Origin: Magnetococcales bacterium
GTDB taxonomy: Bacteria; Pseudomonadota; Magnetococcia; Magnetococcales; DC0425bin3
Length of the DNA: 64,000 nt
Assembly (NCBI GenBank): GCA_015231175.1
Contig: JADGBZ010000007.1
Span: forward strand, 1,846-65,845
Reading direction: 5' to 3'
In this document: positions 7,691 through 64,000 of the stretch, piece by piece
Layout of the letters: the number at the start of each line of letters is the position of its first letter
Numbering within the stretch: position 1 is the stretch's first letter
Translations under genes and position numbers: made by a program
The notes under the pieces: generated by a model
What the model saw: the letters and a program-made list of their open reading frames with translations, nothing else
The model's database searches: none
What the model was told of the DNA's origin: nothing

Positions 7691-8317
7691 ATGAAAAAAT
7701 CCGACGTGATGGCAGTTTTTTCCGCATTTCGGGATGCCAATCCTGAACCGCGTGGGGATTTGCTCTTTCGCAACCCCTTTGAACTCCTGGTTGCCGTGGT
7801 GCTGTCCGCCCAGGCGACCGATCGGGTGGTAAACCAGGTGACGCCGGCCCTTTTTGCGGCGGCGCCCGATCCGCACGCCATGGTGGTTTTGGGGGAGGAG
7901 GGGATTCGGTCTTACATTCACACGGTCGGTTTGTACAACACCAAGGCGAGACATATCCACCTCCTGAGTGGAGAGTTGTTGCGCAGGCATGGGGGAGAGG
8001 TTCCGGACCGGCGTGAAGCCTTGGAGGCCTTGCCGGGGGTGGGACGCAAATCGGCCAATGTCGTGCTCAACGTCGTTTTTGGACAGCCGACCCTGGCGGT
8101 GGATACGCACGTTTTTCGGGTGGCCAACCGGACAGGTCTGGCGGCAGGCAAGACGCCGTTGCAGGTGGAAGAGTTGTTGCTCGCCAGGGTTCCGCCGCCA
8201 TTTTTGTTGCATGCGCACCATTGGTTGATTTTGCATGGCCGGCATGTTTGTCAGGCGCGGCGGCCACGTTGTGAGGGGTGTCTGATTCGGCGTTGGTGCG
8301 CGCTGGGGAAGGAGTGA
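7691..8317 (+). CDS. nth: endonuclease III
   Basis: 208 aa. FELLVAVVLSAQATD, HhH-GPD motif LPGVGRKSANVVL, and C-terminal Fe-S cluster C-x6-C-x2-C-x5-C (CQARRPRCEGCLIRRWC). Confidence 0.95.
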   Translation: MKKSDVMAVFSAFRDANPEPRGDLLFRNPFELLVAVVLSAQATDRVVNQVTPALFAAAPDPHAMVVLGEEGIRSYIHTVGLYNTKARHIHLLSGELLRRHGGEVPDRREALEALPGVGRKSANVVLNVVFGQPTLAVDTHVFRVANRTGLAAGKTPLQVEELLLARVPPPFLLHAHHWLILHGRHVCQARRPRCEGCLIRRWCALGKE

Positions 8318-8445
8318 TCATGGCGGAGCGGGTAGACGATCCATTTCAATAAAAACATCCTTGGATATTTTTTGAAGGGGTGATCGTTGCGGAGCAGGTA
8401 GGAGATCTATTTTTATAAAAACATCCTTAGACATTTTTTTGGTTG
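8314..8445. repeat. 66-bp tandem duplication (2 units, about 80% identical) starting at the nth stop codon
   Basis: 8314-8379 and 8380-8445 align without gaps (15 mismatches by eye). Each unit carries an AT-rich hairpin plus T-run (AAAAACATCC-TT-GGATATTTTTT). Confidence 0.85.
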
Positions 8446-9406: not shown

Positions 9407-9456
9407 CATTCCATCCTTGACTTGCGCTTCTTTTGTCCGAGAGGTGGCTGTTGTTC

Positions 9457-11103
9457 ATGTGTCGAACATTGATGAAAATAATCACAGGATTCATGGTTTT
9501 ATTCATGATGGTGGCGCCTGCCCTGGTTCAGGGACAAGAGCCTGATTCGGTTTATCTGAGAGGAAAGCATGTTCCTTTTGATCAGGCTTTGTTACAGGCG
9601 CATAGAGGAGATGCGGAAGCAAAATACAGTGTAGGTTGGTTTTATATAGATAAAAACGATAAAAAAAATGGTATATATTGGATCAGAAGTGCCGCCATGG
9701 CTGGTTATGTACCTGCCATGGAGGATCTGCCATTTCAGTTGTTGCATTCGATTTATCCCCGCCACGATACTCTTGTGGAGGTTGAATCTGTTGGATGGGC
9801 TCTGAAATCACTTAAGATTAACCCGGATTGCTGGGGTGCCATGGTGGTTATGGCTGGCTATTACCGTTTGGGGTGGGGATTTTCCAGCAACATCAAATTG
9901 GCGAAAGAGTGGGAAGATAAAGCGATACGACTGGGGGGTGCGAAAGCTGCCATTCATTTGGCGTTTTTTAATTGGCCAAAAAATGAGGTGGTATATGATC
10001 CCCATAGGACATTATATTTTCTGAAAAAAGCGTCGGAAGATAACGATTCGTTAGCTCAGGCGCTTCTTGGCCAGTATTATGCGGGCTCTGATTTATTTAA
10101 ATTTAATCCCATTCCACTCAATCCTGACCAATCCCGTTATTGGTTGGAAAAGGCGTTTCAAGCGGGTGAAGGAGGGGGAGCGTTTTGGTTGGGTAAGCTC
10201 TATTATCATGGGAGCGGGGGGTATCCCCGGGATCTGGTCGAGGCCAAGTCCTGGTTTGAGCGTATACCCCGTCTTTATGCAAGAGCAAAATTTCTCTTGG
10301 CAACGCTCTACTGGTCTGGCGTTCCCGGCGCCCCTCCCGATCAGGCAAAAGCCATGGCTTTGTTCCAGCAGGCGGCGGAAGAGAAGAGTGCGCGCGCTCA
10401 GTTTGCCATGGGGCAACTGCATCGTGGGGGATATCTGGGCGGCAAGCCTGATATGACCCAGGCTTATCTCTGGTATCGCAAGGCTGCCAGGAACGCATAT
10501 CCACCAGCAATGACCATGCAGGGTCTCATGAGCCTGAAGGGTGATGGTATTCTGGCCGATCCAAAAGGGGCTGTGTCGCTTTTGCAGGCAGCCGCTGCCG
10601 AAGGAGAGGAAAATGCCCTGTATTGGCTTGGCGTCATGTCCCAGGTTGGCTTGGGTGTTGACAAGAGTTTGTCCCGGGCGCGCACCTGGTTTTTGCGTGG
10701 CGCCGAGGCTGGGGAGGCGCGATCCATGGTCAAACTATCCCTCGACCTGTTTGCGGGCAAAGGGGGGGCGCAGGAGCTTCCTCTTGCCTACCATTGGGCC
10801 AAAAAGGCGGCGCAGAGTGGTTTGCCTCAGGGGCTCTGCTGGGCGGGAACCTTGTTGTATTTTGGTGTTGGCACGCCGCCCGATCCGGAGCAGGCCAGGG
10901 TTTGGTTGCGGCAAGGTTCGGCTGCCGGCATGGAGCCGTGTACGCGCGTTTTGACGGCAGCCTCCCCCAAAACGCCAGGAGACACCGGTATTCGGCCACC
11001 CCTGGTGGAGGCCGTGGCTGCGGATTTATCTAAGGCCATGGATGGGGAGATGGATCACCCCTATCTCCCCATATCGTCCCATTTGGAGGTGTTGCCAAAA
11101 TGA
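9457..11103 (+). CDS. secreted Sel1-like repeat (SLR/TPR-like) protein, paralogue 1
   Basis: ORF track 9433..11103 trimmed to ATG 9457 (GAGGTGG upstream), 548 aa. Signal peptide MKIITGFMVLFMMVAPALVQG. Multiple Sel1 units (A-x-W-x-x-KAA-x-x-G pattern, e.g. AYLWYRKAARNAYPPAM, ARTWFLRGAEAGEARSM). Confidence 0.85.
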   Translation: MCRTLMKIITGFMVLFMMVAPALVQGQEPDSVYLRGKHVPFDQALLQAHRGDAEAKYSVGWFYIDKNDKKNGIYWIRSAAMAGYVPAMEDLPFQLLHSIYPRHDTLVEVESVGWALKSLKINPDCWGAMVVMAGYYRLGWGFSSNIKLAKEWEDKAIRLGGAKAAIHLAFFNWPKNEVVYDPHRTLYFLKKASEDNDSLAQALLGQYYAGSDLFKFNPIPLNPDQSRYWLEKAFQAGEGGGAFWLGKLYYHGSGGYPRDLVEAKSWFERIPRLYARAKFLLATLYWSGVPGAPPDQAKAMALFQQAAEEKSARAQFAMGQLHRGGYLGGKPDMTQAYLWYRKAARNAYPPAMTMQGLMSLKGDGILADPKGAVSLLQAAAAEGEENALYWLGVMSQVGLGVDKSLSRARTWFLRGAEAGEARSMVKLSLDLFAGKGGAQELPLAYHWAKKAAQSGLPQGLCWAGTLLYFGVGTPPDPEQARVWLRQGSAAGMEPCTRVLTAASPKTPGDTGIRPPLVEAVAADLSKAMDGEMDHPYLPISSHLEVLPK

Positions 11104-11124
11104 CCCGAAAGGATGCAAACTTCG
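10107..11124 (+). repeat. 1018-bp segmental duplication, copy 1 (3' two-thirds of SLR gene 1 plus 21 nt past the stop)
   Basis: Aligns without gaps to 11791-12808 (offset 1684 nt). I count 3 mismatches by eye (10266, 11031, 11072). Confidence 0.9.
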
Positions 11125-11140
11125 AGGTGGGCTGTTGTTT

Positions 11141-12787
11141 ATGTATCGAACATTGATGAAAGTAATCACAGGATTTATGGTTTTGTTTATGATGGTGGCG
11201 CCCGCCTTGGTCCAGGGGAGAGAACCTGATTTTGTCATTCTTGGCGAGAAACATGTTCCTTTTGATCAGGCTTTATTGTTGGCGCACGGGGGAGATGTGG
11301 AGGCCCAATATCGTATTAGTCTTCTATATTCTACAAATAAAAACAATAACAAAATAAGTTTATATTGGATGAGAAGGGCTGCTATGGCTGGATATGTGCC
11401 TGCTATGGAATATCTTGTGTTTTATTTGTTCAGCACGATCTATCCCAATCATGATTTTCTCTTGGAGGTGGAGGTTATAGGTTGGGCACAGAAAACCCTG
11501 GCCGTGAAAGCGGATAGTTGGGAGATCATGATGGACATGGCAGTCTTTCATCATCATGGATGGGGTGTGTCAAGAAACGAAAGGTTGGCCAAAATGTGGG
11601 AAGAGTCGGCGTTACGGGTTGGCGGTGCTCAAGCTGCGTTCTTTCTGTCAACCTCCCATGCCCGGGATGGTGTCCTGGATCACGATCCTGATAAACTTCT
11701 GCATTTACTGACCTATGCGGCAGAAGGTAATTACCTTGTTGCACAGGTGTTTCTCGGAAAATATTTTGCAGGGAAGTTATTCAAGAAGGATCCCATTCCA
11801 CTCAATCCTGACCAATCCCGTTATTGGTTGGAAAAGGCGTTTCAAGCGGGTGAAGGAGGGGGAGCGTTTTGGTTGGGTAAGCTCTATTATCATGGGAGCG
11901 GGGGGTATCCCCGGGATCTGGTCGAGGCCAAGTCCTGGTTTGAGCGTATGCCCCGTCTTTATGCAAGAGCAAAATTTCTCTTGGCAACGCTCTACTGGTC
12001 TGGCGTTCCCGGCGCCCCTCCCGATCAGGCAAAAGCCATGGCTTTGTTCCAGCAGGCGGCGGAAGAGAAGAGTGCGCGCGCTCAGTTTGCCATGGGGCAA
12101 CTGCATCGTGGGGGATATCTGGGCGGCAAGCCTGATATGACCCAGGCTTATCTCTGGTATCGCAAGGCTGCCAGGAACGCATATCCACCAGCAATGACCA
12201 TGCAGGGTCTCATGAGCCTGAAGGGTGATGGTATTCTGGCCGATCCAAAAGGGGCTGTGTCGCTTTTGCAGGCAGCCGCTGCCGAAGGAGAGGAAAATGC
12301 CCTGTATTGGCTTGGCGTCATGTCCCAGGTTGGCTTGGGTGTTGACAAGAGTTTGTCCCGGGCGCGCACCTGGTTTTTGCGTGGCGCCGAGGCTGGGGAG
12401 GCGCGATCCATGGTCAAACTATCCCTCGACCTGTTTGCGGGCAAAGGGGGGGCGCAGGAGCTTCCTCTTGCCTACCATTGGGCCAAAAAGGCGGCGCAGA
12501 GTGGTTTGCCTCAGGGGCTCTGCTGGGCGGGAACCTTGTTGTATTTTGGTGTTGGCACGCCGCCCGATCCGGAGCAGGCCAGGGTTTGGTTGCGGCAAGG
12601 TTCGGCTGCCGGCATGGAGCCGTGTACGCGCGTTTTGACGGCAGCCTCCCCCAAAACGCCAGGAGACACCGGTATTCGGCCACCCCTGGTGGAGGCCGTG
12701 GCTGCGGATTTATCCAAGGCCATGGATGGGGAGATGGATCACCCCTATCTCCCCACATCGTCCCATTTGGAGGTGTTGCCAAAATGA
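11141..12787 (+). CDS. secreted Sel1-like repeat (SLR/TPR-like) protein, paralogue 2
   Basis: ORF track 11042..12787 trimmed to ATG 11141 (GAGGTGG upstream), also 548 aa. Signal peptide MKVITGFMVLFMMVAPALVQG. C-terminal 331 aa differ from paralogue 1 at 2 residues. Confidence 0.85.
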   Translation: MYRTLMKVITGFMVLFMMVAPALVQGREPDFVILGEKHVPFDQALLLAHGGDVEAQYRISLLYSTNKNNNKISLYWMRRAAMAGYVPAMEYLVFYLFSTIYPNHDFLLEVEVIGWAQKTLAVKADSWEIMMDMAVFHHHGWGVSRNERLAKMWEESALRVGGAQAAFFLSTSHARDGVLDHDPDKLLHLLTYAAEGNYLVAQVFLGKYFAGKLFKKDPIPLNPDQSRYWLEKAFQAGEGGGAFWLGKLYYHGSGGYPRDLVEAKSWFERMPRLYARAKFLLATLYWSGVPGAPPDQAKAMALFQQAAEEKSARAQFAMGQLHRGGYLGGKPDMTQAYLWYRKAARNAYPPAMTMQGLMSLKGDGILADPKGAVSLLQAAAAEGEENALYWLGVMSQVGLGVDKSLSRARTWFLRGAEAGEARSMVKLSLDLFAGKGGAQELPLAYHWAKKAAQSGLPQGLCWAGTLLYFGVGTPPDPEQARVWLRQGSAAGMEPCTRVLTAASPKTPGDTGIRPPLVEAVAADLSKAMDGEMDHPYLPTSSHLEVLPK

Positions 12788-12887: not shown

Positions 12888-13871
12888 TCACTTTACCATG
12901 CGCAACCGCTCCAACAGGCGTTGCAGGCCCGCATCCAGGGGGGCTTCCACTGTGATGGGTTGGCCGGTGCGAGGATGGGTCAGGGAGATGCGGGAAGAGT
13001 GCAAAAACATGCGCTTCAACCCTGTCGAGCGCATGTGCCGGTTGAACTCCCGCTCGCCATACTTGGGATCTCCGGCGATGGGATGGCCCAGCAACTGGAA
13101 ATGGACACGCAACTGATGAGTCCGTCCGGTATTGGGCTTGGCTTCTACCAGGGAGGCCACACCATAATTGGCCAATGTACGGTACCAGGTATGAGCCGGT
13201 TTGCCGTCGGCGCCTCCGGCCACCATCCGCTCTCCCGAACGCACCATGCCCCGTACCAGGGGAATGGCAATTTCTCCCTCGCGGGGTGAGGGGGTTCCCC
13301 GTACCAGCAGCAGATAGCGTTTATCCACCTCGCCATCGCGAAAAACCCGGGCCATCTCCCGCACTGTGCAGGCATCCAGGCCAAAGACCAGGCACCCTGA
13401 TGTGTCCTTGTCGAGACGATGGCAAAGCTCTGGCATGACATCGTGGCGCATCTCCATCATGCGCCGCACCCCATCCACCAGACCATATGGTTGTCCACTT
13501 CCCCCATGGACGGGAATTCCCTCCGGCTTGTCCAGCACCAGCAAATGGTCGTCCCGATAACAAATGCGTTCCGCCAGGGTGGCCGACCAGCCATCGCCAG
13601 GTTTGCTGCGTTCGCCAACCCCTTCTGGATCATCGACCGCAGCTCGCACCGGCGGAATACGAATTTTTTGCCCCAGGAGCAACCGTTCACCCCCCTTGGC
13701 CCGTTTCCCGTCGACACGCACCTGGCCTGTTCGCAACAGGCGCTGCCAGGCCGACATGGGTAACGCCGGAACTTCCCTTTGCAGGAGTCGATCCAACCGC
13801 ATGCCCACATCGTCCGCCCCCACCACCCGGTGGCGAACCGGGAAACGTATCAGGCCATCGAGATCAGTCAA
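12888..13871 (-). CDS. rluC: 23S rRNA pseudouridine synthase, RluA family (RluC-like)
   Basis: 327 aa. N-terminal S4-like region, catalytic motif HRLDKDTSGCLVF. Divergent from rne, as in E. coli. Confidence 0.8.
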   Translation of the reverse strand: MTDLDGLIRFPVRHRVVGADDVGMRLDRLLQREVPALPMSAWQRLLRTGQVRVDGKRAKGGERLLLGQKIRIPPVRAAVDDPEGVGERSKPGDGWSATLAERICYRDDHLLVLDKPEGIPVHGGSGQPYGLVDGVRRMMEMRHDVMPELCHRLDKDTSGCLVFGLDACTVREMARVFRDGEVDKRYLLLVRGTPSPREGEIAIPLVRGMVRSGERMVAGGADGKPAHTWYRTLANYGVASLVEAKPNTGRTHQLRVHFQLLGHPIAGDPKYGEREFNRHMRSTGLKRMFLHSSRISLTHPRTGQPITVEAPLDAGLQRLLERLRMVK

Positions 13872-17440: not shown

Positions 17441-20302
17441 ATGGATACTGACCTGGATCTTGATATTTTTCGGCAAATTCTTGAAAAGAGCTCCTATGGT
17501 ATCATTGTTCTTGATCAGGTCTCCAAAGTTGTATTCTGGAATCGCTGGATGGAAAAAGCGTCACGCATTCCCGCCGCTGGTGTTGTCGGGCAGGTATTTA
17601 CAGACGTTTTTCCAGATTTGCTCGGTACCCGTATTGCGCGTGGCATTGAAAACGCCCTCTCCCAGGGATTGCCCACCACCCTCTCCCACAAGTTGACCCA
17701 TCGGCCCTTTCCTCTCTTTCCTCCTGCTGCCGGGCGGGAAGCGGACGAACGCATGAGCCAACACGTTCTGATCAGTGGCATACGCGCCCGGGACCGGACT
17801 TTTTATTGTACCATCCAGATCCAGGACATTACCGACACCGTCTCCCGTGAACACATATTGCGTGAACAGACCGGGGAGTTGCGTTTGGCCAAGGAGATGG
17901 CACAGAGTGCCAGCCAAGCAAAGGGGGACTTTCTGGCCAATATGAGTCATGAGATTCGCACCCCGATGAACGCCATCATTGGCATGACGCACCTGGCCAT
18001 GCAAACCGATCTGAATCCCAGGCAACTCGATTACCTGACCAAGATTCAATACTCCTCCCAGTCCCTGCTTGGCATCATCAACGATATTCTCGATTTTTCC
18101 AAAATCGAGGCGGGCAAACTGAAGATGGAGTCCGTCGCTTTCCACCTGGATGAGGTTTTGCACAACGTCTCCAACCTGATGACGATCAAAACCGATGAAC
18201 AGGGGCTGGAATTTTGTTTCCACGTTGCCAAGGATCTTCCTCTGGGTCTGGTGGGCGATCCGCTGCGCCTGGGGCAGGTTTTGGTCAATTTGACCAGCAA
18301 TGCCGTCAAGTTTACCCGTGCGGGAGAGATCATTCTGTCCGTCGAATTGGAGGCGTTGACCGAGGAGACGGTGACGATTCATTTCAGTGTCAAGGACAGC
18401 GGCATTGGCATGACTCCAGAACAGATCGCCGGGTTGTTCCGACCCTTTACCCAGGCTGACAGCTCAACGACCCGAAAATTTGGCGGTACGGGTCTTGGTC
18501 TTTCCATCTGCCGGCGCTTGGTTCAGATGATGGGAGGAAACATCTGGGTCGAGAGTCAATCTGGGCTTGGCAGCACCTTCCATTTCAACGCAACGTTTGG
18601 ACGCGCCAACAAGGATCGCCGCCGGTTTCGTTTGCCCGACGATCGATATGTGGGTTTGCGCGTTTTATTGGCGGATGACAATGCTGCGTCGCGCGAAATT
18701 CTGCAACATGCCTTGGAGTCTTTTTCCTTCAAGGTTACCCCTGTGGCTTCTGGTGCCGAGGCCATTGCCGAGTTGGAAAAAGCCCGACATGCCCGGCCCT
18801 TTGACATGGTGTTCGTGGATTGGAAAATGCCGGAGATGGATGGCATTCGCACCACGGAGGAGATCTCCAGACTTTTTCCCACCCAACGCATGCCCAAGGT
18901 GATCATGGTGACCGCCTACGGTCGGGAGGAGGTGCTGCATGCTGCCAAAAGTGTCCATCTCAATTCAATTTTGATCAAACCCGTCAGCCTCTCCCTGTTG
19001 TTCGACACCATTCTGGCCGCTTTGGGGGAAAATGAGCGTGCCATCACCAACCCGCTCCAGACGAGCAGAAATGAGTTGGTACCCCTCCAGTTGTCACCCC
19101 TCCAGCAGAAGATGCACCCCTTGCAGGGCGCCAAAATATTGCTGGTTGAGGATAACGAGATCAATCAGCAGGTGGCGGGGGAACTTCTCGACATGGTGGG
19201 GTTGCAGGTGCGTATCGCCTCCAACGGGCGGCAAAGCCTCATCGCCCTGGCAGAGGAGTCGTTTGATGCCGTGCTGATGGATATTCAAATGCCGGAGATG
19301 GATGGTTATGAAGCCACCCGCAAAATTCGGGAAAATCCAGCCTGGACAACTCTGCCCATCATCGCCATGACGGCCAATGCCCTGGCCGGGGATCGGGAAA
19401 AATGCCTGGCCGTGGGTATGAATGAACATATCGCCAAACCCATTGATCCCCGTGTTCTTTACAGTACCCTTACCCGTTGGATCAAGCCTCCGTTGCCAAC
19501 CGTTGAGCAACCGGTGGTGGCGCAGGCGCCGCGACCTGAACGAACCCAACCGGAACCTGTTGATCACCTGGTATCGCAAGCGACTGAATATAAAGGCATG
19601 GAACCGGATGTCACCCTTCAAGCAACTGAATATAAAAATATGGAGCCGGATGTCACTCTTTTGCCGGAATCCATTCCCGGTTTTGATCTTTCTGTTGGGC
19701 TGAAATATGTGGGTGGCAACAAGAAACTTTACCGGAAACTATTGCTGGATTTTCGGCGCACCCAATGGGATGCAGCCGAGAAGGTTCATCAGGGCATGAC
19801 ATCGGGAGAGATCCATGAGACGCAGCGCCGGGTCCACACCATCAAAGGTATTGCCGGCACACTGGGGGCTTTGGAGTTGCAGGATGTGGCAAAACATTTG
19901 GAAGTTTCCCTGAAGAACCATGACCGCGAACAATCCGCATCCTTGCTCAAGCCTTTCCAAAGTTCCTTGCAAGGTGTCATGCACGCTCTTGCCGTTTTGG
20001 ACTCTCAGGAAACTCCCGTCGATCCGCCCCATGTTGTGAAAGGATCCAAGGAAGGCCATCATGATGGGCCTCTTGATCGAAATGCTTTGGAGTCTGTCAC
20101 AACCCTTTGTCAACAATTGGCCGCATGGCTCGATGAGGGTGACGTTCGCGCCAAAAGCACTCTGGAACAACTCAACAAATGCCTTCCCCCGGCCCATAGG
20201 CAGGTGGTCGGCCTGGTGGCTGAAAAAATGGGCGATTATGATTTTGACGGTGCCAGGGACGCCTTGGTGCAATGGGCCTCATTCATGAAAATATCCCTCT
20301 GA
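17441..20302 (+). CDS. hybrid sensor histidine kinase (PAS-HisKA-HATPase-REC-REC-HPt)
   Basis: 953 aa. H-box [15 protein letters not shown]. ATPase boxes DSGIGM and GGTGLGLSI. Two receivers ([21 protein letters not shown]). C-terminal HPt [11 protein letters not shown]. Confidence 0.9.
19577..19660 (+). repeat. in-frame 42-bp tandem duplication (2 x 14 aa) in the REC2-HPt linker of the hybrid kinase
   Basis: [14 protein letters not shown] / [14 protein letters not shown]. 6 nt differences, three of them synonymous. Confidence 0.85.
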
Positions 20303-53609: not shown

Positions 53610-55790
53610 TTGGATGCGGATCTGCCTGACACCTCTTCACCGTCACACCTGGTTTTTTTTGTCAGCGTTCCCTCGGGTTTGGAATCCCTGTTGGCGGGGG
53701 AGCTGCGCCAATTAGGACTCGCCCGTCTGCGACCGGGCCAAAGCGGCGTCTCCTTTTCAGGAACCCTGGAGGATGCGCTGCGGGTCGTTCTCTGGTCGCG
53801 GGTGGGCAGCCGGGTTACCCTTCCCCTGCAAAAGGTGCCGGCTGCCACTCCAGAAGCCTTGTACGCCGGTGTGCATGCCATCCCCTGGGAAGAGCACATC
53901 CCGCCACAAGGAACGTTGGATATTGAGTTCAAAGGGGTCAACGACACCATCCGACACACCCGTTTCGGTGCGCAAAAGGTCAAGGATGCGGTGGTGGACC
54001 GGTTGCGGGAGAAGCGGGGAAGCCGTCCAACGGTCACCCATGCCCACCCGGATGTCCACATCCATGTTCGGTTGCGGGAGGAGAGCGCCCAGGTCGCCCT
54101 GGATCTTGCCGGGGGTTCACTGCACCGGCGCGGCTATCGCGTGGACTCGACGGTGGCCCCGTTGCGGGAGAATCTTGCCGCAGCCATCCTGATGCTCTGC
54201 AATTGGCCCGAGCTGGCCCAACAGGGGGCGGGCTTGTTCGACCCCTTGTGTGGCTCCGGGACGTTTCTCATCGAGGGGGCCTGGATGGCCGGGGATGTGG
54301 CTCCCGGTCTTCTGCGGCCCGCTTCTGGTGGGCGAGGGTGGCTCGGCTGGGATGCACCACTCTGGCGCCGTCTGCTCTCGGAGGCCGAGGCGCGGCGGGA
54401 AGTGGGCATGCAGCGGTTGCCCCCCTTGTTGGGTGGCGACCTCTCCGCCACGGCCCTGCAGGCTACGCGGCGCAATGCCATGCAGGCTGGCGTGGTCGAG
54501 TCGATCCTTTTGCAGCAAAAGTCCGTTGCGCAACTGCGCCCTGGCTTCGGCTCCGGTTTGTTGGTGACCAACCCGCCCTACGGGCAACGACTGGGGCACG
54601 GCGGGGAGTGGACCACCCTCTACCGGGATCTGGGACATCTGTTGCAATCCGGTTGCCGCAACTGGCCAGCCGGAGTGTTGGCCATGGATAACCTTCTGCC
54701 CCAAGCGCTTGGCCTGAAACCAGAACGGTCGCATCCGCTGCGCAATGGCCCGCTCCATTGCAACCTCCTGATTTTTTCCCCATCCCGGTCGGCGCCCAAG
54801 GAGGCTCCCACCCCTGATCCGGCAGCGACACCAGACAGCCCCATCTCTCCCGGGCAGGAGATGTTTGCCAACCGGTTGCGCAAAAACATGCGCGAAATGG
54901 GAAAATGGGCGCGCCGGGAGGGGGTCCACTGCTACCGGGTCTATGATGCGGATATGCCCGAATACGCCTTGGCCATCGACCTCTATGATGGCTATGTCCA
55001 CGCCCAGGAGTATCATGCCCCGGTTTCCGTCGAACCGGAGAAAGCCCGAATGCGGTTGCAGGAAGCGTTGGCAGCCTTGCCCGGCGTTTTTGGTCTCCAG
55101 CCGGAAAAAATTTTTTTCAAGGTTCGGCGGCGGCAAAAAGGGGACGAACAGTACCAAAAATTGGAGAGCAAGGGGATCCGTTTTCCGGTGCGGGAGGGTC
55201 CATTCCGCTTTCTGGTCAATTTGAGCGATTACCTGGATGTTGGTCTCTTCCTGGACCACCGGCGTATCCGGGCCATGCTGGGGGAGATGGCTTCGGGACG
55301 CAGGTTTCTGAATCTGTTCGGCTATACAGGAACGGCAACGGTGTACGCAGCAGCCGGAGGCGCTGTTTCCACCACGACTGTAGACATGTCGGCCACCTAT
55401 CTCCATTGGGCCCGGGCCAACCTGGATCTGAACGGCCTGATGTCGGCCCGACACCAGTTTGTCGAAGGGGATTGCCTGGCGTGGATCGATCAACACCCGA
55501 GACGTTACGACCTGATCTTTCTGGATCCCCCAACCTTTTCCAACTCGAAACGGATGTCTGGCGTGTTTGATGTCCAGCGGGATCACGTGGATCTGGTGAT
55601 CCGGACCGCCCGTTTGCTCGCTGCGGGGGGTGTGATGATTTTCTCAAACAATTTCAAGAAATTTCGTCCACAATGGACCGATCTTCCCCCTTATCTTGAG
55701 GTGGTGGATCTGACGACTAAAACCATTCCGGAAGATTTTCGCCGGCATGCAAACGTTCACCATTGTTGGCGCATGCAGATGCGGGCTTGA
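53610..55790 (+). CDS. rlmL: bifunctional 23S rRNA (guanine-N2/N7) methyltransferase RlmKL
   Basis: 726 aa, TTG start. THUMP-type N-terminus (GLESLLAGELRQLG, VLWSRVGSRV). First methyltransferase NPPYG motif, second C-terminal SAM methyltransferase domain. Confidence 0.85.
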   Translation: MDADLPDTSSPSHLVFFVSVPSGLESLLAGELRQLGLARLRPGQSGVSFSGTLEDALRVVLWSRVGSRVTLPLQKVPAATPEALYAGVHAIPWEEHIPPQGTLDIEFKGVNDTIRHTRFGAQKVKDAVVDRLREKRGSRPTVTHAHPDVHIHVRLREESAQVALDLAGGSLHRRGYRVDSTVAPLRENLAAAILMLCNWPELAQQGAGLFDPLCGSGTFLIEGAWMAGDVAPGLLRPASGGRGWLGWDAPLWRRLLSEAEARREVGMQRLPPLLGGDLSATALQATRRNAMQAGVVESILLQQKSVAQLRPGFGSGLLVTNPPYGQRLGHGGEWTTLYRDLGHLLQSGCRNWPAGVLAMDNLLPQALGLKPERSHPLRNGPLHCNLLIFSPSRSAPKEAPTPDPAATPDSPISPGQEMFANRLRKNMREMGKWARREGVHCYRVYDADMPEYALAIDLYDGYVHAQEYHAPVSVEPEKARMRLQEALAALPGVFGLQPEKIFFKVRRRQKGDEQYQKLESKGIRFPVREGPFRFLVNLSDYLDVGLFLDHRRIRAMLGEMASGRRFLNLFGYTGTATVYAAAGGAVSTTTVDMSATYLHWARANLDLNGLMSARHQFVEGDCLAWIDQHPRRYDLIFLDPPTFSNSKRMSGVFDVQRDHVDLVIRTARLLAAGGVMIFSNNFKKFRPQWTDLPPYLEVVDLTTKTIPEDFRRHANVHHCWRMQMRA

Positions 55791-55908
55791 CGGCGCGGGT
55801 GTTTTGCCGATCCCATGGAAATGATTGCGCTTTTCCCGGAAGAAGCGGGCCTGACGGCGCGGGTGTTTTGCCGCTTCCCTAGAAATGATTGCGCTTTTCC
55901 CGGAGGTG
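55781..55908. repeat. 64-bp tandem duplication (2 units, about 87% identical) spanning the rlmL and gloB stop codons
   Basis: 55781-55844 and 55845-55908 align without gaps (8 mismatches). Unit 1 contains the rlmL stop (55788-55790). Unit 2 contains the gloB stop (55879-55881). Confidence 0.85.
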
Positions 55909-60388: not shown

Positions 60389-61054
60389 TTGCGTTTTTTA
60401 CTGGTAGAAGATGATGGCACCCTCGCTGCCACCATCAAAAAAGATTTAAACCATGCCGGGTATGCCGTGGACATCGTACATGATGGTGTGGAAGCCGAAT
60501 TCATGGGGGAGTCCGAACCCTATGATCTGGTGATTCTGGATCTGGGTTTGCCAGGCAGGCATGGTTTGGAGGTTTTAAAAAATTGGCGTCAGCATGGCCA
60601 TATCATGCCGGTATTGATTCTGACCGCCTGGGACGCCTGGCACGAACGGGTGGATGGCTTCAAGGCCGGGGCAGACGATTATCTCGGTAAGCCATTTCAC
60701 ATTCAGGAGCTTGTTGCCCGTATCAACGCCCTTTTGCGTCGCAGCCATACGACCACCAAGGGAACGTTGACCTTGGCGGGTATCACCTTGAACGAAGAAA
60801 CCCAGGAGGTCCATCTGCCATCGGGAGAAACGAAGTCTCTGACAGGAACCGAGTTTCGTCTGCTCCGTTATTTCATGTTTCATGCCGATGAAGTTCTCTC
60901 AAAAACCAGATTGACCGAACATATCTACGAATACGATGCCGACAAGGACAGTAATGTGATCGAGGTGTACGTCAAACGACTGCGCCGACTTGTTGGACAG
61001 GAACGCATTGAGACCCGCCGTGGTCAGGGCTATGTTTTTCGGGCGGCGCCATGA
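60389..61054 (+). CDS. OmpR-family response regulator
   Basis: 221 aa, TTG start. Receiver (LLVEDD, VILDLGLPG, YLGKPF) plus winged-helix output (LTGTEFRLLRYF, RGQGYVF). Confidence 0.9.
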   Translation: MRFLLVEDDGTLAATIKKDLNHAGYAVDIVHDGVEAEFMGESEPYDLVILDLGLPGRHGLEVLKNWRQHGHIMPVLILTAWDAWHERVDGFKAGADDYLGKPFHIQELVARINALLRRSHTTTKGTLTLAGITLNEETQEVHLPSGETKSLTGTEFRLLRYFMFHADEVLSKTRLTEHIYEYDADKDSNVIEVYVKRLRRLVGQERIETRRGQGYVFRAAP

Positions 61055-62385
61055 ACCCTTCCTTGCAAAAGCGGCTGACTTGGCAGTTGGCCCTGCTGTT
61101 GGTCGTTGCCATGGCCATCCAGTGGGGTGTTGTCGAATGGGTTCTGGACCGGATCATTTACAATCATGTGACCTCCCGGCTTGCGCATGATGCCCATACC
61201 ATTCTGGCCCAGACCCGTGTTCATCCTGGCCATGACACAGTGCTTGTCCAGGCAGACCCCATCTATCAGCAGCCATGGTCTGGACACTATTACGCCCTCA
61301 AGGTGGGAGGGATCCTTTTACGCTCCCGCTCTCTATGGGACAACACCTTGCCTCTCCCTGAAGTAGCTGTTGGCAGCGAGATTTTATCCAATCTGGTTGG
61401 TCCTCGTCAGCAACCGTTGCTGGTTCTGACCCGGAGCTTTGTCAAACTCGGTTCAGTCGTCACGATCAGTGTGGCCGAAGATATGACCAGCATTCACCAA
61501 GGGATTGCTCTTTTGCAATTTTGGCACGCCATGCTCTCTCTTTTGGCCATCGGTGTGCTGTTGATTCTGCAACGTTGGACGCTTCGGCGTGGTTTGCAGC
61601 CATTGAACCGTGCCTGCATGGAGATCCAACGTCTGGAACGCGGTGAGGTGGAGATGCTGCATACGGTTTCCGTTCCTGTGGAAATCCTTCCATTCATTCT
61701 TGAAATCAACCGTTTGGTTGCAACGCTTCTACGGAGGTTGCAACGCGCCCGGCATGCCACGAGCAATCTGGCGCATGCCATCAAGACCCCGTTGACCATC
61801 CTCCTGCAACTTGGAAGCAATCCATGCTTTGCGGTGCAAACCGATTTGCAGGAGACCCTCCGAAGACAGGTTGAAGCCATTCGCCAGTTGACGGATCGGG
61901 AATTGAAGCGGGTTCGCTCAGCTGGTTCTGGCACCCCCACACGCAACGTTGATATTCAGGAAGAGTTGGCAGCACTGGTTGCCGTCCTCAAACTGGCGCA
62001 CCAATCCAAAGAGGTGATTGTCTCCTTGGAGGTTCCCACAGGTCTTGTGCTTCCCATGGACCGGGAGGATTTGCTGGAACTTGCTGGTAACCTGCTGGAC
62101 AATGCCTGCAAATGGGCCAGGAGCAGGGTCGATTGTCGCGTCGCCAGCGATGCCGGAGTGTTCCACCTGACAGTCGAAGATGATGGTCCTGGCTGCCCGG
62201 ATGACCAATTACAACACATTCCGGAACGCGGAGTCCGCACGGACACGACCAAACCAGGTTTTGGCATGGGTCTGGATATCGTTTGCGATATCGTCGAGGA
62301 TTATGACGGGCAGCTGACCCTGGGAAAATCAAAACATCTCAGCGGATTTTCAGCCCAAGTCAAGTTACGATTGGCAACTCCATAG
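61051..62385 (+). CDS. sensor histidine kinase (cognate of the OmpR-family regulator)
   Basis: 444 aa, 4-nt overlap with the regulator gene. Two TM segments. H-box SNLAHAIKTPLT. ATPase motifs NLLDNACKW, DDGPG, GFGMGLDIV. Confidence 0.9.
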   Translation: MNPSLQKRLTWQLALLLVVAMAIQWGVVEWVLDRIIYNHVTSRLAHDAHTILAQTRVHPGHDTVLVQADPIYQQPWSGHYYALKVGGILLRSRSLWDNTLPLPEVAVGSEILSNLVGPRQQPLLVLTRSFVKLGSVVTISVAEDMTSIHQGIALLQFWHAMLSLLAIGVLLILQRWTLRRGLQPLNRACMEIQRLERGEVEMLHTVSVPVEILPFILEINRLVATLLRRLQRARHATSNLAHAIKTPLTILLQLGSNPCFAVQTDLQETLRRQVEAIRQLTDRELKRVRSAGSGTPTRNVDIQEELAALVAVLKLAHQSKEVIVSLEVPTGLVLPMDREDLLELAGNLLDNACKWARSRVDCRVASDAGVFHLTVEDDGPGCPDDQLQHIPERGVRTDTTKPGFGMGLDIVCDIVEDYDGQLTLGKSKHLSGFSAQVKLRLATP

Positions 62386-62427
62386 CGAATTTTCAGCCCA
62401 AGTCAAGTGACGATTGGCAACTCCATT
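62342..62427. repeat. 43-bp tandem duplication (2 units, 3 mismatches) of the 3' end of the kinase gene
   Basis: 62342-62384 and 62385-62427. The junction falls inside the TAG stop codon (62383-62385). Confidence 0.9.
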
Positions 62428-62599: not shown

Positions 62600-63265
62600 A
62601 TGTGCATGGGCGAAAGTTGGCAGTCGGGTCGTCGTGTTTTTGGCGGTATCGTTTTGATTTTATTGTTTCTTTGCCCGACGCTCGCCAGGGCAGAGGAGGA
62701 TCGTGCGCCGCTGGAGCAGTTGCAGGCCTTCCTTGACCGGTTGAAAAGCATCGATGCCGACTTCACCCAGGTGGTTTCCGACCCTGCCAATGGAAAAAAA
62801 ACCGAATACAAGGGCCGGTTTACCGCGCTTCGACCCAACCTGTTCCGCTGGGATTACCAGACCCCCTATGTCCAGCTGATTGTCTCGGATGGCGAATGGA
62901 TCTGGCACTATGAACCGGAGCTTCAACAGGCGACCCGGGTCTCGGTCAAACAGATGGAAAAAACCCCGGCTGGTTTTTTGATTGCCAGCAGGCGGGTCGA
63001 GGAGACCTTCGATTGGAAGGCCGTCACGGATCCGGAATGGAAGACGCCGACTGTCACCCTGCGTCCGCGCCAAGCTGACAGCAACTTCCAGGAGATCGCC
63101 GTCACCCTGGATCCAGACGGGGAGCATATCCGCAACATGGTCGTGGTTGACAACCTGGGCAACCGTTCCCGATTTACTTTTCATGATATGCGCGCCAGCC
63201 GGTCCCTGGATCGGCAAAGTTTTCGTTTCGCACCACCGACAGGCGTGGATGTGGTTACCGAGTAG
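62600..63265 (+). CDS. lolA: outer-membrane lipoprotein carrier protein LolA
   Basis: 221 aa (alternative ATG 62606). Signal peptide. LQAFLDRLKSIDADFTQ, RPNLFRWDY, WIWHYEPELQQ are typical LolA blocks. Confidence 0.85.
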   Translation: MCMGESWQSGRRVFGGIVLILLFLCPTLARAEEDRAPLEQLQAFLDRLKSIDADFTQVVSDPANGKKTEYKGRFTALRPNLFRWDYQTPYVQLIVSDGEWIWHYEPELQQATRVSVKQMEKTPAGFLIASRRVEETFDWKAVTDPEWKTPTVTLRPRQADSNFQEIAVTLDPDGEHIRNMVVVDNLGNRSRFTFHDMRASRSLDRQSFRFAPPTGVDVVTE

Positions 63266-63381
63266 AAGAAGAACGTTTGATGCCATCGGATGGGGTTGCC
63301 GGGTAGAGGAAGATCGTTTGATGCCATCGGATGGGGTCACTGGGTAGAGGGAGATCGTTTTATGCCATCGTTCGATATTGT
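63259..63381 (+). repeat. 41-bp tandem repeat x3 that triplicates the yajQ ribosome-binding site and start codon
   Basis: Units at 63259, 63300 and 63341. Each carries GTAGAGGAAG-like SD plus ATGCCATCG. Units 1 and 2 encode 8-codon mini-ORFs (MPSDGVAG*, MPSDGVTG*). Unit 3 holds the real start. Confidence 0.9.
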
Positions 63382-63847
63382 CTCGAAGGTGGATTTGCAG
63401 GAAGTGGACAACGCCGTCAATCAGGCTGCCAAGGAGATTGGCAACCGGTTTGATTTCAAGGGGTCCAAGAGCAAGCTGGAACGGGAAGAGTCGGTGATCA
63501 AATTAATCTCGGAAGATGAGTATAAACTCGAACAGATCGTCGACATTCTGCGGGGCAAGCTCATTCGCCGCCAGGTAGATCCCCAATCCATGGATTTTGG
63601 CAAAATTGAGCCGGCTTCGGGTGGATTGGTCCGCCAGCATATCACGATTCGCCAGGGTATCGACAAGGATTTGGGCCGGGAGATCGTCAAGAGGGTCAAA
63701 GAGTCCAAAATCAAGGTTCAGGTGGCCATTCAGGGGGAGGAGGTCCGCGTTTCCGGGAAGAAACGAGATGACCTCCAGAGTGCCATTGCCCTCCTGCGCA
63801 AAGAAAATCTTGGCCAGCCACTCCAATTCGAGAATTTCCGGGATTGA
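63362..63847 (+). CDS. yajQ: YajQ family nucleotide (c-di-GMP)-binding protein (UPF0234/DUF520)
   Basis: ORF track 63290..63847 trimmed to ATG 63362. 161 aa, beginning MPSFDIVSKVDLQEV as in E. coli YajQ and ending QFENFRD. Confidence 0.9.
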   Translation: MPSFDIVSKVDLQEVDNAVNQAAKEIGNRFDFKGSKSKLEREESVIKLISEDEYKLEQIVDILRGKLIRRQVDPQSMDFGKIEPASGGLVRQHITIRQGIDKDLGREIVKRVKESKIKVQVAIQGEEVRVSGKKRDDLQSAIALLRKENLGQPLQFENFRD

Positions 63848-63852
63848 AGAAC

Positions 63853-64000
63853 ATGTCGGGCAACAGTGACCGGAAGATCGGCGTGATTTCCTTGGGTTGT
63901 GCCAAGAACCAAGTGGACAGCGAGTTCATGTTGGGGCAGTTTCGCAATCAGGGCTACCAACTGACCAATGACCCCGAGCAGGCTGATATTCTGGTCGTCA
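63853..64000 (+). CDS. rimO: ribosomal protein S12 methylthiotransferase RimO-like (MiaB/RimO family), 3' end outside window
   Basis: Not in the ORF track because there is no stop before the window end. ATG 63853 then MSGNSDRKIGVISLGCAKNQVDSEFMLGQFRNQGYQLTNDPEQADILVV, matching the UPF0004 N-terminal domain (KIGFVSLGCPKNLVDSE in E. coli RimO). Confidence 0.7.
   Translation, partial: MSGNSDRKIGVISLGCAKNQVDSEFMLGQFRNQGYQLTNDPEQADILVV

Follow-up and report, generated by a model that had tools for sequence, protein, structure and literature searches.

Can the boundary between two bacterial genes be copied whole, stop codon, ribosome-binding site and start codon together, and do the extra start sites then do anything for the downstream gene? 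This question is raised by the junction of lolA and yajQ in an uncultured magnetotactic bacterium of the Magnetococcales, where three 41-bp units lie head to tail. The DNA analysed, called the window throughout, is a stretch of 64,000 nucleotides (assembly GCA_015231175.1, contig JADGBZ010000007.1, forward-strand positions 1,846 to 65,845), and coordinates are counted from its first letter. A first-pass annotation had described a triplicated translation-initiation region and had left two readings side by side, namely tuning of the translation of YajQ, a c-di-GMP-binding protein, or a neutral duplication. The second is favoured by the single-copy junction of the nearest relative, the weakened decoy ribosome-binding sites, the chance-level conservation of the decoy codons and the similar duplications found at other gene ends. 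Tuning is kept in contention by an independent duplication of the initiation region in a sister species. With a probability of about 0.6, the array is a tolerated, near-neutral local duplication with a modest side effect on translational coupling rather than a dedicated regulatory device. Its origin as a local duplication of the junction is well resolved by sequence comparison, and its functional consequence is probably small.

The repeated lolA–yajQ junction

The lolA gene occupies positions 62600–63265 of the plus strand, as an open reading frame (ORF) running from the ATG at 62600 to the TAG at 63263–63265. Its product ends in ...GVDVVTE* and matches the Pfam LolA family (E = 1.4e-38). Gene calls on a sister assembly of the same species (L081) place the start at ATG 62606, giving 219 aa, and the C-terminus GVDVV(T/A)E* recurs in relatives. 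On the same strand, yajQ occupies 63362–63847 and encodes a DUF520/YajQ family protein of 161 aa, which starts MPSFDIVSK and aligns from residue 2 over the full length of the Pfam PF04461 profile (E = 2e-66). The spacer between the two genes is 96 nt.

Tandem Repeats Finder (TRF), applied to the 64-kb window, reported a single array at this junction (63247–63370, period 41, 3.0 copies, 87% matches, no indels, score 185). In the unit alignment the units begin at 63247, 63288 and 63329, and the array spans 63247–63369, or 123 bp. The three units align without gaps, 32 of the 41 columns are invariant and nine are variable, and any two units differ at 5–8 of 41 positions (80–88% identity). A 28-nt unit consensus, allowing up to three mismatches, matched three times in the window, each time within the array, and never in 100 dinucleotide-preserving shuffles. 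No further copy of the unit was found in the window with this consensus, nor in about 176 fetched loci.

Each unit consists of the last ~5.7 codons of lolA with their TAG, followed by a 14-nt spacer with a Shine-Dalgarno (SD) sequence overlapping the stop codon, and then by ATGCCATC, the first 8 nt of yajQ. The array is a triplication of the lolA-stop/yajQ-start junction itself. Unit 1 (63247–63287, plus strand, as are the other two) carries the genuine lolA tail with its stop (G GAT GTG GTT ACC GAG TAG), a decayed SD, GAAGAAG, at 63265–63271, and a decoy ATGCCATC. Unit 2 (63288–63328) carries a copy of the lolA tail (GAT GGG GTT GCC GGG TAG), a weakened SD, GAGGAAG, at 63306–63312, and a second decoy ATGCCATC. 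Unit 3 (63329–63369) carries another copy of the lolA tail, an SD of ancestral type, GAGGGAG, at 63347–63353, and the genuine yajQ start.

The first-pass annotation had located the TAGs at 63263–63265, 63304–63306 and 63345–63347, the ATGs at 63280, 63321 and 63362, three copies of ATGCCATCG and an SD-like motif, GTAGA(G/A)G(A/G)AG, in each unit. All of these were recovered, and the three near-identical TAG-SD-ATG modules are borne out. Its register, with units from 63259, 63300 and 63341 and an end at 63381, was shifted. The repeated DNA extends from 63247, a position within lolA and 12 nt upstream of the stated border, to 63369, and 63370–63381 lie outside it. The description as a duplication was right, but it overlooked that the 3' end of lolA is part of the unit and that the mini-ORFs are for this reason chimeric.

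Translation of the two decoy ATGs gives the mini-ORFs that had been predicted. The first, MPSDGVAG* (63280–63306), begins 14 nt after the lolA stop. The second, MPSDGVTG* (63321–63347), begins 14 nt after the stop of the first, and a further 14 nt separate its stop from the yajQ ATG. The same +14-nt stop-to-start geometry thus recurs at all three hops, from the lolA stop to the first decoy ATG, from the first mini-ORF stop to the second decoy ATG, and from the second mini-ORF stop to the yajQ ATG. Both mini-ORFs are chimeras in which yajQ codons 1–3 run on in frame into a copied lolA end, consisting of its five final codons and the TAG. Each closes at the copied lolA TAG after eight codons because the 41-nt unit less the 17-nt offset from TAG to ATG leaves 24 nt. 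Each has an SD, start codon and in-frame stop, all of which lie ahead of yajQ on a transcript presumably shared with lolA.

The third ATG (63362) is the true yajQ start, as had been proposed. The 120 homologues listed are 161–169 aa long, most of them 161–162 aa, and yajQ begins with ATGCC(A/C/T)TC (M-P-S) in every relative whose DNA was read. The earlier observation that the yajQ frame is also open from an ATG at 63290 is correct as well. The frame runs from there across the repeats into yajQ, and a protein begun at 63290 would be a 185-aa YajQ with the N-terminal extension MGLPGRGRSFDAIGWGHWVEGDRF. Such an isoform has next to no chance of being real and was rejected. ATG 63290 has no SD upstream (-1.1 kcal/mol), the 24-residue extension occurs in none of the 120 best homologues, the Pfam model aligned from residue 2 of the 161-aa form, and the extension is merely repeat DNA read out of frame.

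The source is a metagenome-assembled genome (MAG), in which a repeat might be an assembly or sequencing artefact, the real genome holding one unit. This is scarcely credible here. Mis-assembly is very unlikely because a second assembly of the species, GCA_015232135.1 (L081), holds an identical triplet of units, because the units have diverged from one another at 5–8 of 41 positions, and because the array, at 123 bp, is shorter than a typical short read of 150 nt, the read length assumed for these metagenomes. The two assemblies are themselves non-identical, differing over 3.6 kb by one single-nucleotide polymorphism (SNP) and one N gap. The YajQ protein was found verbatim in two NCBI contigs of a 'Magnetococcales bacterium' MAG. 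The copy number is three in both assemblies of this species present in the collections, which hold only two.

The junction in other Magnetococcales

The first-pass annotation had proposed a comparison of the lolA–yajQ spacer in related genomes, and the junction was sampled in 12 Magnetococcales lineages. Scans of GTDB genomes and of metagenomes returned relatives at no more than 64% and 60% identity, respectively, which were used as background. The closest relative, Magnetococcus sp. DMHC-1 (two assemblies, L082 and L083; YajQ 88% identical), has an empty site. It holds one unit, GGATGTGGTTGCAGAGTAGAGGGAGATCGGATCATGCCATC, with a spacer of 14 nt (...GTGGATGTGGTTGCAGAGTAGAGGGAGATCGGATCATGCCATCATTC...). 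The assembly GCA_015229045.1 (L084; YajQ 86%) has a spacer of 65 nt with an independent duplication of 52 bp in 2.1 copies. The borders of this array differ from those in the window; the SD and yajQ codons 1–12 are duplicated, and from the decoy ATG an out-of-frame ORF of 47 codons runs across the true yajQ start. The window species, DMHC-1 and L084 are about equidistant (Jukes-Cantor (JC) distance at fourfold sites 0.81–0.89), and therefore their ancestor had a single-copy junction with a spacer of 13–14 nt. According to the relatives, this ancestral junction consisted of the lolA TAG, the 13–14-nt spacer with the SD GAGGGAG overlapping the stop, and the yajQ ATG.

Farther away, L085 and L086 (YajQ 66%) have spacers of 112 and 154 nt that contain an array of a different 42-bp unit in 2.2 and 3.2 copies, resembling repetitive extragenic palindromic (REP) elements. 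In eight further lineages (YajQ 63–68%) the spacers measure 11, 17, 23, 25, 83, 96, 104 and 145 nt and hold no repeats. The 96-nt spacer with three 41-bp units is shared by the window and L081, whose YajQ proteins are identical (100%). Among yajQ loci from all sources (n = 168), arrays with a period of at least 20 overlap the yajQ start only in the window species (with L081) and in L084. The REP-like array of L085 and L086 ends 15 nt upstream of the yajQ start, and two weak 24-bp arrays lie upstream of it in unrelated loci. The window array thus has what a local tandem duplication should have: a constant period beyond chance, a single-copy site in a relative, collinearity with its flanks and a unit unique among the loci searched.

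Gene order around the junction is largely stable. The synteny lolA-yajQ-rimO-rarA(-crcB) was found in nearly all sampled Magnetococcales, the exception being L090, in which an unrelated gene follows rimO. In the window, a rimO-like gene for a radical-SAM methylthiotransferase (Pfam UPF0004) starts at 63853 on the plus strand and runs past the window end at 64000. More broadly, yajQ is directly preceded by lolA in 31 of the 168 yajQ loci, including Geobacter/Desulfuromonadales-type genomes as well as Magnetococcales, and the linkage is old and widespread because it is found beyond the Magnetococcales. In Magnetococcales bacterium HHB-1 (L001), prfC precedes yajQ instead of lolA. Upstream of lolA, a gene pair for an OmpR-type response regulator and a histidine kinase (60389–62385) was found only in this species; the two closest relatives (L082 and L084) have an unrelated 166-aa gene there on the opposite strand.

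Translation signals and RNA

SD duplex energies were computed against the canonical anti-SD ACCUCCUUA. They rise in strength along the array, from -2.5 kcal/mol in unit 1 through -6.0 in unit 2 to -8.5 in unit 3. The single-copy site of DMHC-1 gives -8.5 kcal/mol, equal to unit 3, and the two copies in L084, a younger duplication, give -8.5 and -8.8 kcal/mol. By these predicted energies, the true yajQ start keeps the ancestral SD and the decoy SDs are weakened.

A structured RNA element at the junction was considered and rejected. The predicted fold of 63235–63400 had a minimum free energy no better than that of shuffled sequences (z = -0.01), the array region had no Rfam match at E ≤ 1, and the unpaired probabilities of the three initiation regions showed no consistent difference and varied with context. 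The array therefore has neither the structure nor the family membership of a regulatory leader. Neither a promoter-like nor a terminator-like site was found in the lolA–yajQ spacer.

A modest effect on translation may still be expected. Coupling becomes less efficient as the distance between stop and start grows, fewer than 20 additional nt can make a difference, and a start can receive ribosomes from a short ORF upstream of it (reviewed in PMC12548453). In the proposed mechanism, YajQ would be made from the third start, mostly by de novo initiation on the strong third SD. The decoy sites, with their weaker SDs, would translate 8-codon chimeric peptides that serve no purpose in themselves. After terminating at lolA, ribosomes could make the hop from stop over 14 nt to start three times instead of once. 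These hops would partly preserve the coupling to lolA across the 96-nt spacer and would probably weaken it, so that coupling is diluted, not abolished. A ribosome terminating at the TAG at 63345–63347 would sit on the yajQ SD itself and could either hand over to yajQ or transiently occlude the SD. The expected net effect is a modest change in the LolA:YajQ ratio and not a switch.

Age and probable stepwise growth of the array

The JC distance between units is 0.13–0.23, about 15–25% of the neutral distance between the species as measured at fourfold sites. This divergence vastly exceeds that between the two assemblies (one SNP in 3.6 kb), which argues that the array is fixed and fairly old. 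At unit positions 30–31, all three units carry bases that are derived by comparison with both outgroups, and therefore the first duplication appears to postdate the species split. The units are 80–88% identical and equal in number in both assemblies, and in neither respect do they resemble phase-variable contingency repeats.

The derived states form a mosaic. A derived G at unit positions 6 and 15, in the lolA-tail part, is common to units 2 and 3, and a derived A at position 23, in the SD part, is common to units 1 and 2. A history of two duplications, the second in a shifted register, would account for this mosaic without parallel mutation. A 41-bp segment from lolA codon -6 to yajQ codon 3 would have been duplicated, and a few substitutions would have followed. 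An internal 41-bp segment would then have been duplicated in the shifted register, copying the first SD, the first decoy ATG, the mini-ORF and the second TAG, after which further substitutions would have accumulated. Alternatively, parallel G-to-A changes may have occurred in both decoy SDs, which would hint at selection against decoy initiation.

Tandem duplications in the lineage

The array is one of five tandem arrays with periods of 41–66 that TRF found within the 64 kb of the window. The others are a 66 × 2 array at 8308–8439, which straddles the nth stop and its terminator-like hairpin; a 42 × 2 array at 19577–19660, in frame in the linker of a hybrid histidine kinase; a 64 × 2 array at 55777–55904, across the convergent stops of rlmKL-like and gloB-like genes; and a 43 × 2 array at 62341–62426 (95% matches), across the stop of the histidine-kinase gene at 61051–62385. 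All four non-coding arrays, that at lolA (63247–63369, 41 × 3) included, thus straddle a stop codon, and the sole intragenic one has a period of 42, keeps the frame and lies in a linker. The unit sequences of different arrays are unrelated to one another. With identical TRF settings, other Magnetococcales loci held seven arrays in 151 kb. Non-Magnetococcales loci held 12 in 768 kb, which corresponds to 1.0 expected per 64 kb and gives a Poisson P of 0.004 for at least five; the density in the window is about five times this background.

These observations fit a lineage-wide mutational tendency to form 40–66-bp tandem duplications, filtered by selection to harmless sites. Under such a tendency, duplications would arise in many places and the survivors would be those at gene ends or in frame in linkers, since a duplication that breaks a frame can persist only if it leaves each gene end with an intact copy. 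The array at lolA and yajQ would have been tolerated because unit 1 keeps an intact lolA end and unit 3 an intact yajQ initiation region of ancestral strength.

Several further observations concern duplicated DNA in these genomes. The histidine-kinase TAG within 62341–62426 was created at the junction of the two copies, and an ORF without the 43-bp duplication would probably be longer by about 11 codons. Copy 2 of this array contains the only SNP by which the window and L081 differ (TGA versus TTA). In DMHC-1, the rarA/mgsA-like gene for an AAA+ protein contains an in-frame 39-bp × 4.6 array (L082 5541–5721, L083 4247–4427), which lengthens the protein to 482–496 aa against 438–448 aa in most relatives examined. 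Elsewhere in the window, the neighbouring paralogues at 9433–11103 and 11042–12787 (556 and 581 aa, 82% protein identity) share a 3' stretch of 998 nt that is 99.7% identical, which suggests recent gene conversion or a partial tandem duplication.

Tolerated duplication or regulatory device

Several points weigh against a tolerated duplication. Two of the three species of the close clade have independently duplicated the yajQ initiation region, perhaps a sign that YajQ dosage is under selection. The array has also endured for long without collapse, although direct repeats are prone to deletion. The two decoy ATGs and the two additional TAGs have all survived. At the borders of the five arrays in the window, no microhomology of 2 nt or more was seen that would hint at a mutational mechanism. 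In addition, all that is said here of ribosome behaviour in this uncultured organism is inferred from sequence. The intact decoy codons carry no statistical weight. Given nine variable columns in 41, the absence of changes in the 11 columns of ATGCCATC and TAG has a P of ~0.09, and the location of two of the three changes in the SD part of unit 1 within the SD core has a P of ~0.13. Neither is significant, and selection on the decoy ATGs and TAGs was accordingly dropped as a candidate.

The array could nevertheless be an adaptive translational tuner under selection, with the LolA:YajQ ratio set by the number of units. In a decoy variant, the SD-ATG modules and 8-codon ORFs would divert ribosomes or occlude the real SD and so lower and decouple YajQ synthesis; in a relay variant, they would pass terminating ribosomes on to yajQ and keep the coupling over the longer spacer. 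The delivery of ribosomes by short ORFs is an accepted mechanism, and the ORFs of mycobacterial interspersed repetitive units (MIRUs) are thought to work in this way (PMC12548453). The retention of the ATG, the in-frame TAG and the 14-nt stop-start spacing in every unit would suit a tuner, as would the time needed for 5–8 differences per pair of units to accumulate, but the conservation of ATG and TAG is within chance, an in-frame stop is a one-in-three outcome of unit length, and the decoy SDs are decaying rather than conserved. Comparison with relatives cuts both ways. The same initiation region was duplicated independently, with different borders, in the sister species L084, whereas the array is missing from the closest relative and from nine other Magnetococcales lineages, whose spacers of 11–145 nt suggest a loosely constrained junction. 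The pattern is not that of a conserved regulatory upstream ORF (uORF), since the mini-ORFs are absent in DMHC-1, L084 has a different and independent uORF, and the nine further lineages have none. The recurrence itself is weak evidence. Among the 12 lineages, two have a local duplication and one a REP-like array. A rough hand tally of the sampled loci found arrays at about 6 of 168 other gene junctions (~3.6%), and against this background a P of ~0.33 is obtained for one or more additional local duplications among 11 lineages and a P of ~0.06 for two or more arrays of any kind, so that the excess is marginal. A tuner is thus unlikely. A more specific proposal, that duplication of the yajQ initiation region (41 bp × 3 here, 52 bp × 2 in the sister) is a recurrent, selected reset of the dosage of a c-di-GMP-binding protein against LolA in this clade, with the mini-ORFs as a relay or decoy that varies in strength with the number of units and the decay of the SDs, is doubtful.

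Two further explanations look past translation. The array might descend from a mobile or dispersed MIRU-like or REP-like element that was inserted between lolA and yajQ and then amplified, and in L085 and L086 the same spacer does hold a 42-bp unit in 2.2 and 3.2 copies whose 32-nt core is a dispersed hairpin. The window unit, however, is collinear base for base with the single-copy lolA end, SD and yajQ start of DMHC-1, was found nowhere else in the window or the fetched loci, forms no significant hairpin and is accompanied by no REP-like core anywhere in the window, and an insertion of this kind is highly improbable. The units might instead be phased binding sites, for example for the OmpR-type regulator encoded upstream, that control yajQ transcription. 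The period of 41 bp is near an integer number of helical turns (about four), the regulator–kinase pair lies directly upstream of lolA only in this species, and the MIRU-containing senX3-regX3 spacer of Mycobacterium tuberculosis has promoter activity (PMC4213456). Yet no promoter-like site was found in or near the array, its sequence consists simply of copies of gene ends and an SD, its units showed no evident half-sites, direct or inverted, apart from the CCATCGGATGG junction made by the duplication, and comparative support is nil, all of which makes phased sites very improbable. A tolerated duplication of the gene junction remains the preferred reading.

Comparison with known systems

MIRU-variable number tandem repeat (MIRU-VNTR) arrays lie in mycobacterial operon spacers such as senX3-regX3 (Supply et al., 1997, as summarised in PMC3184786, PMC4213456 and PMC12548453). 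Like them, the window array consists of units within the 40–100-bp range (41 bp), placed head to tail between co-oriented genes of an operon (lolA and yajQ, plus strand), and contains small ORFs of the same direction, here two of eight codons, that can pass translation along the spacer; empty sites in related species are a further likeness. MIRUs are, however, dispersed in about 40–50 copies per genome and thought to be mobile, whereas the window unit is not dispersed in the window or the fetched loci and is made of the flanking genes' own ends. MIRU ORFs overlap at their ends with the neighbouring start and stop codons (-4 nt), in contrast to the +14 nt found here at all three hops, and copy number does not vary between the two assemblies. 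MIRU arrays may be regarded as the closest functional analogy, of which the window array is not a member.

The mini-ORFs also resemble bacterial uORFs in having an SD, an ATG and a short in-frame ORF that ends near the main start, and uORFs so placed can bring in ribosomes, open up mRNA structure or block access to the main ribosome-binding site (reviewed in PMC12548453; see also the uRBS study PMC13285730). Known regulatory uORFs, however, are conserved among relatives and usually tied to sensing, through stalling or alternative hairpins. The mini-ORFs in the window are species-specific, consist of copied neighbouring coding DNA and have no associated structure that was found.

The REP-like array of L085 and L086 shares the spacer, a similar period (42 bp) and the tandem arrangement. 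Its unit differs in forming a stable hairpin (-21.5 kcal/mol), in being dispersed in the genome and in lacking an ATG, and its copies are near identical (98% matches in TRF) and vary in number between two assemblies. The window unit has no significant structure and no dispersed copies, and the L085 core is absent from the window. The core, GGAGGGTGGAGGGAGG(C/T)(C/T)TCCCCCATCCA(T/G)C, is a 32-nt dispersed hairpin element of Magnetococcales genomes. Its arrays lie at 9896–9986 in L085 and 9854–9986 in L086, with 2.2 versus 3.2 units between these near-identical MAGs, and further copies lie at 1564–1594, 13266–13297 and 15157–15188 in L085 and at 2090–2117 in L084. The array had been considered as a third independent junction duplication, which was rejected because its core is this dispersed element with copies elsewhere.

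Ordinary short tandem duplications and minisatellites arise from replication slippage or microhomology-mediated duplication. The window array resembles them in its head-to-tail copies, in the single copy of a relative, in stepwise growth followed by divergence and in the enrichment of such arrays where frames are unbroken. It differs in showing no border microhomology, in the age and divergence of its copies and in a unit that holds a complete stop-SD-start module. It fits best among ordinary local tandem duplications, though it is unusual in having copied such a module.

Significance

If the array is only a tolerated duplication, it would be a clean natural example of uORFs created from scratch by tandem duplication of a gene junction, and also an example of purifying selection filtering duplications to gene ends. 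If the number of units does tune YajQ, the array would amount to a ribosome relay or decoy that is simple, evolvable and put together from the ends of the two genes, a home-grown counterpart of the MIRUs. Neither reading opens a long-standing question. The array also flags a mutational tendency of the Magnetococcales to form 40–66-bp tandem duplications without visible microhomology, and the accumulation of such duplications at gene ends in these genomes may be a more useful lead than the array itself.

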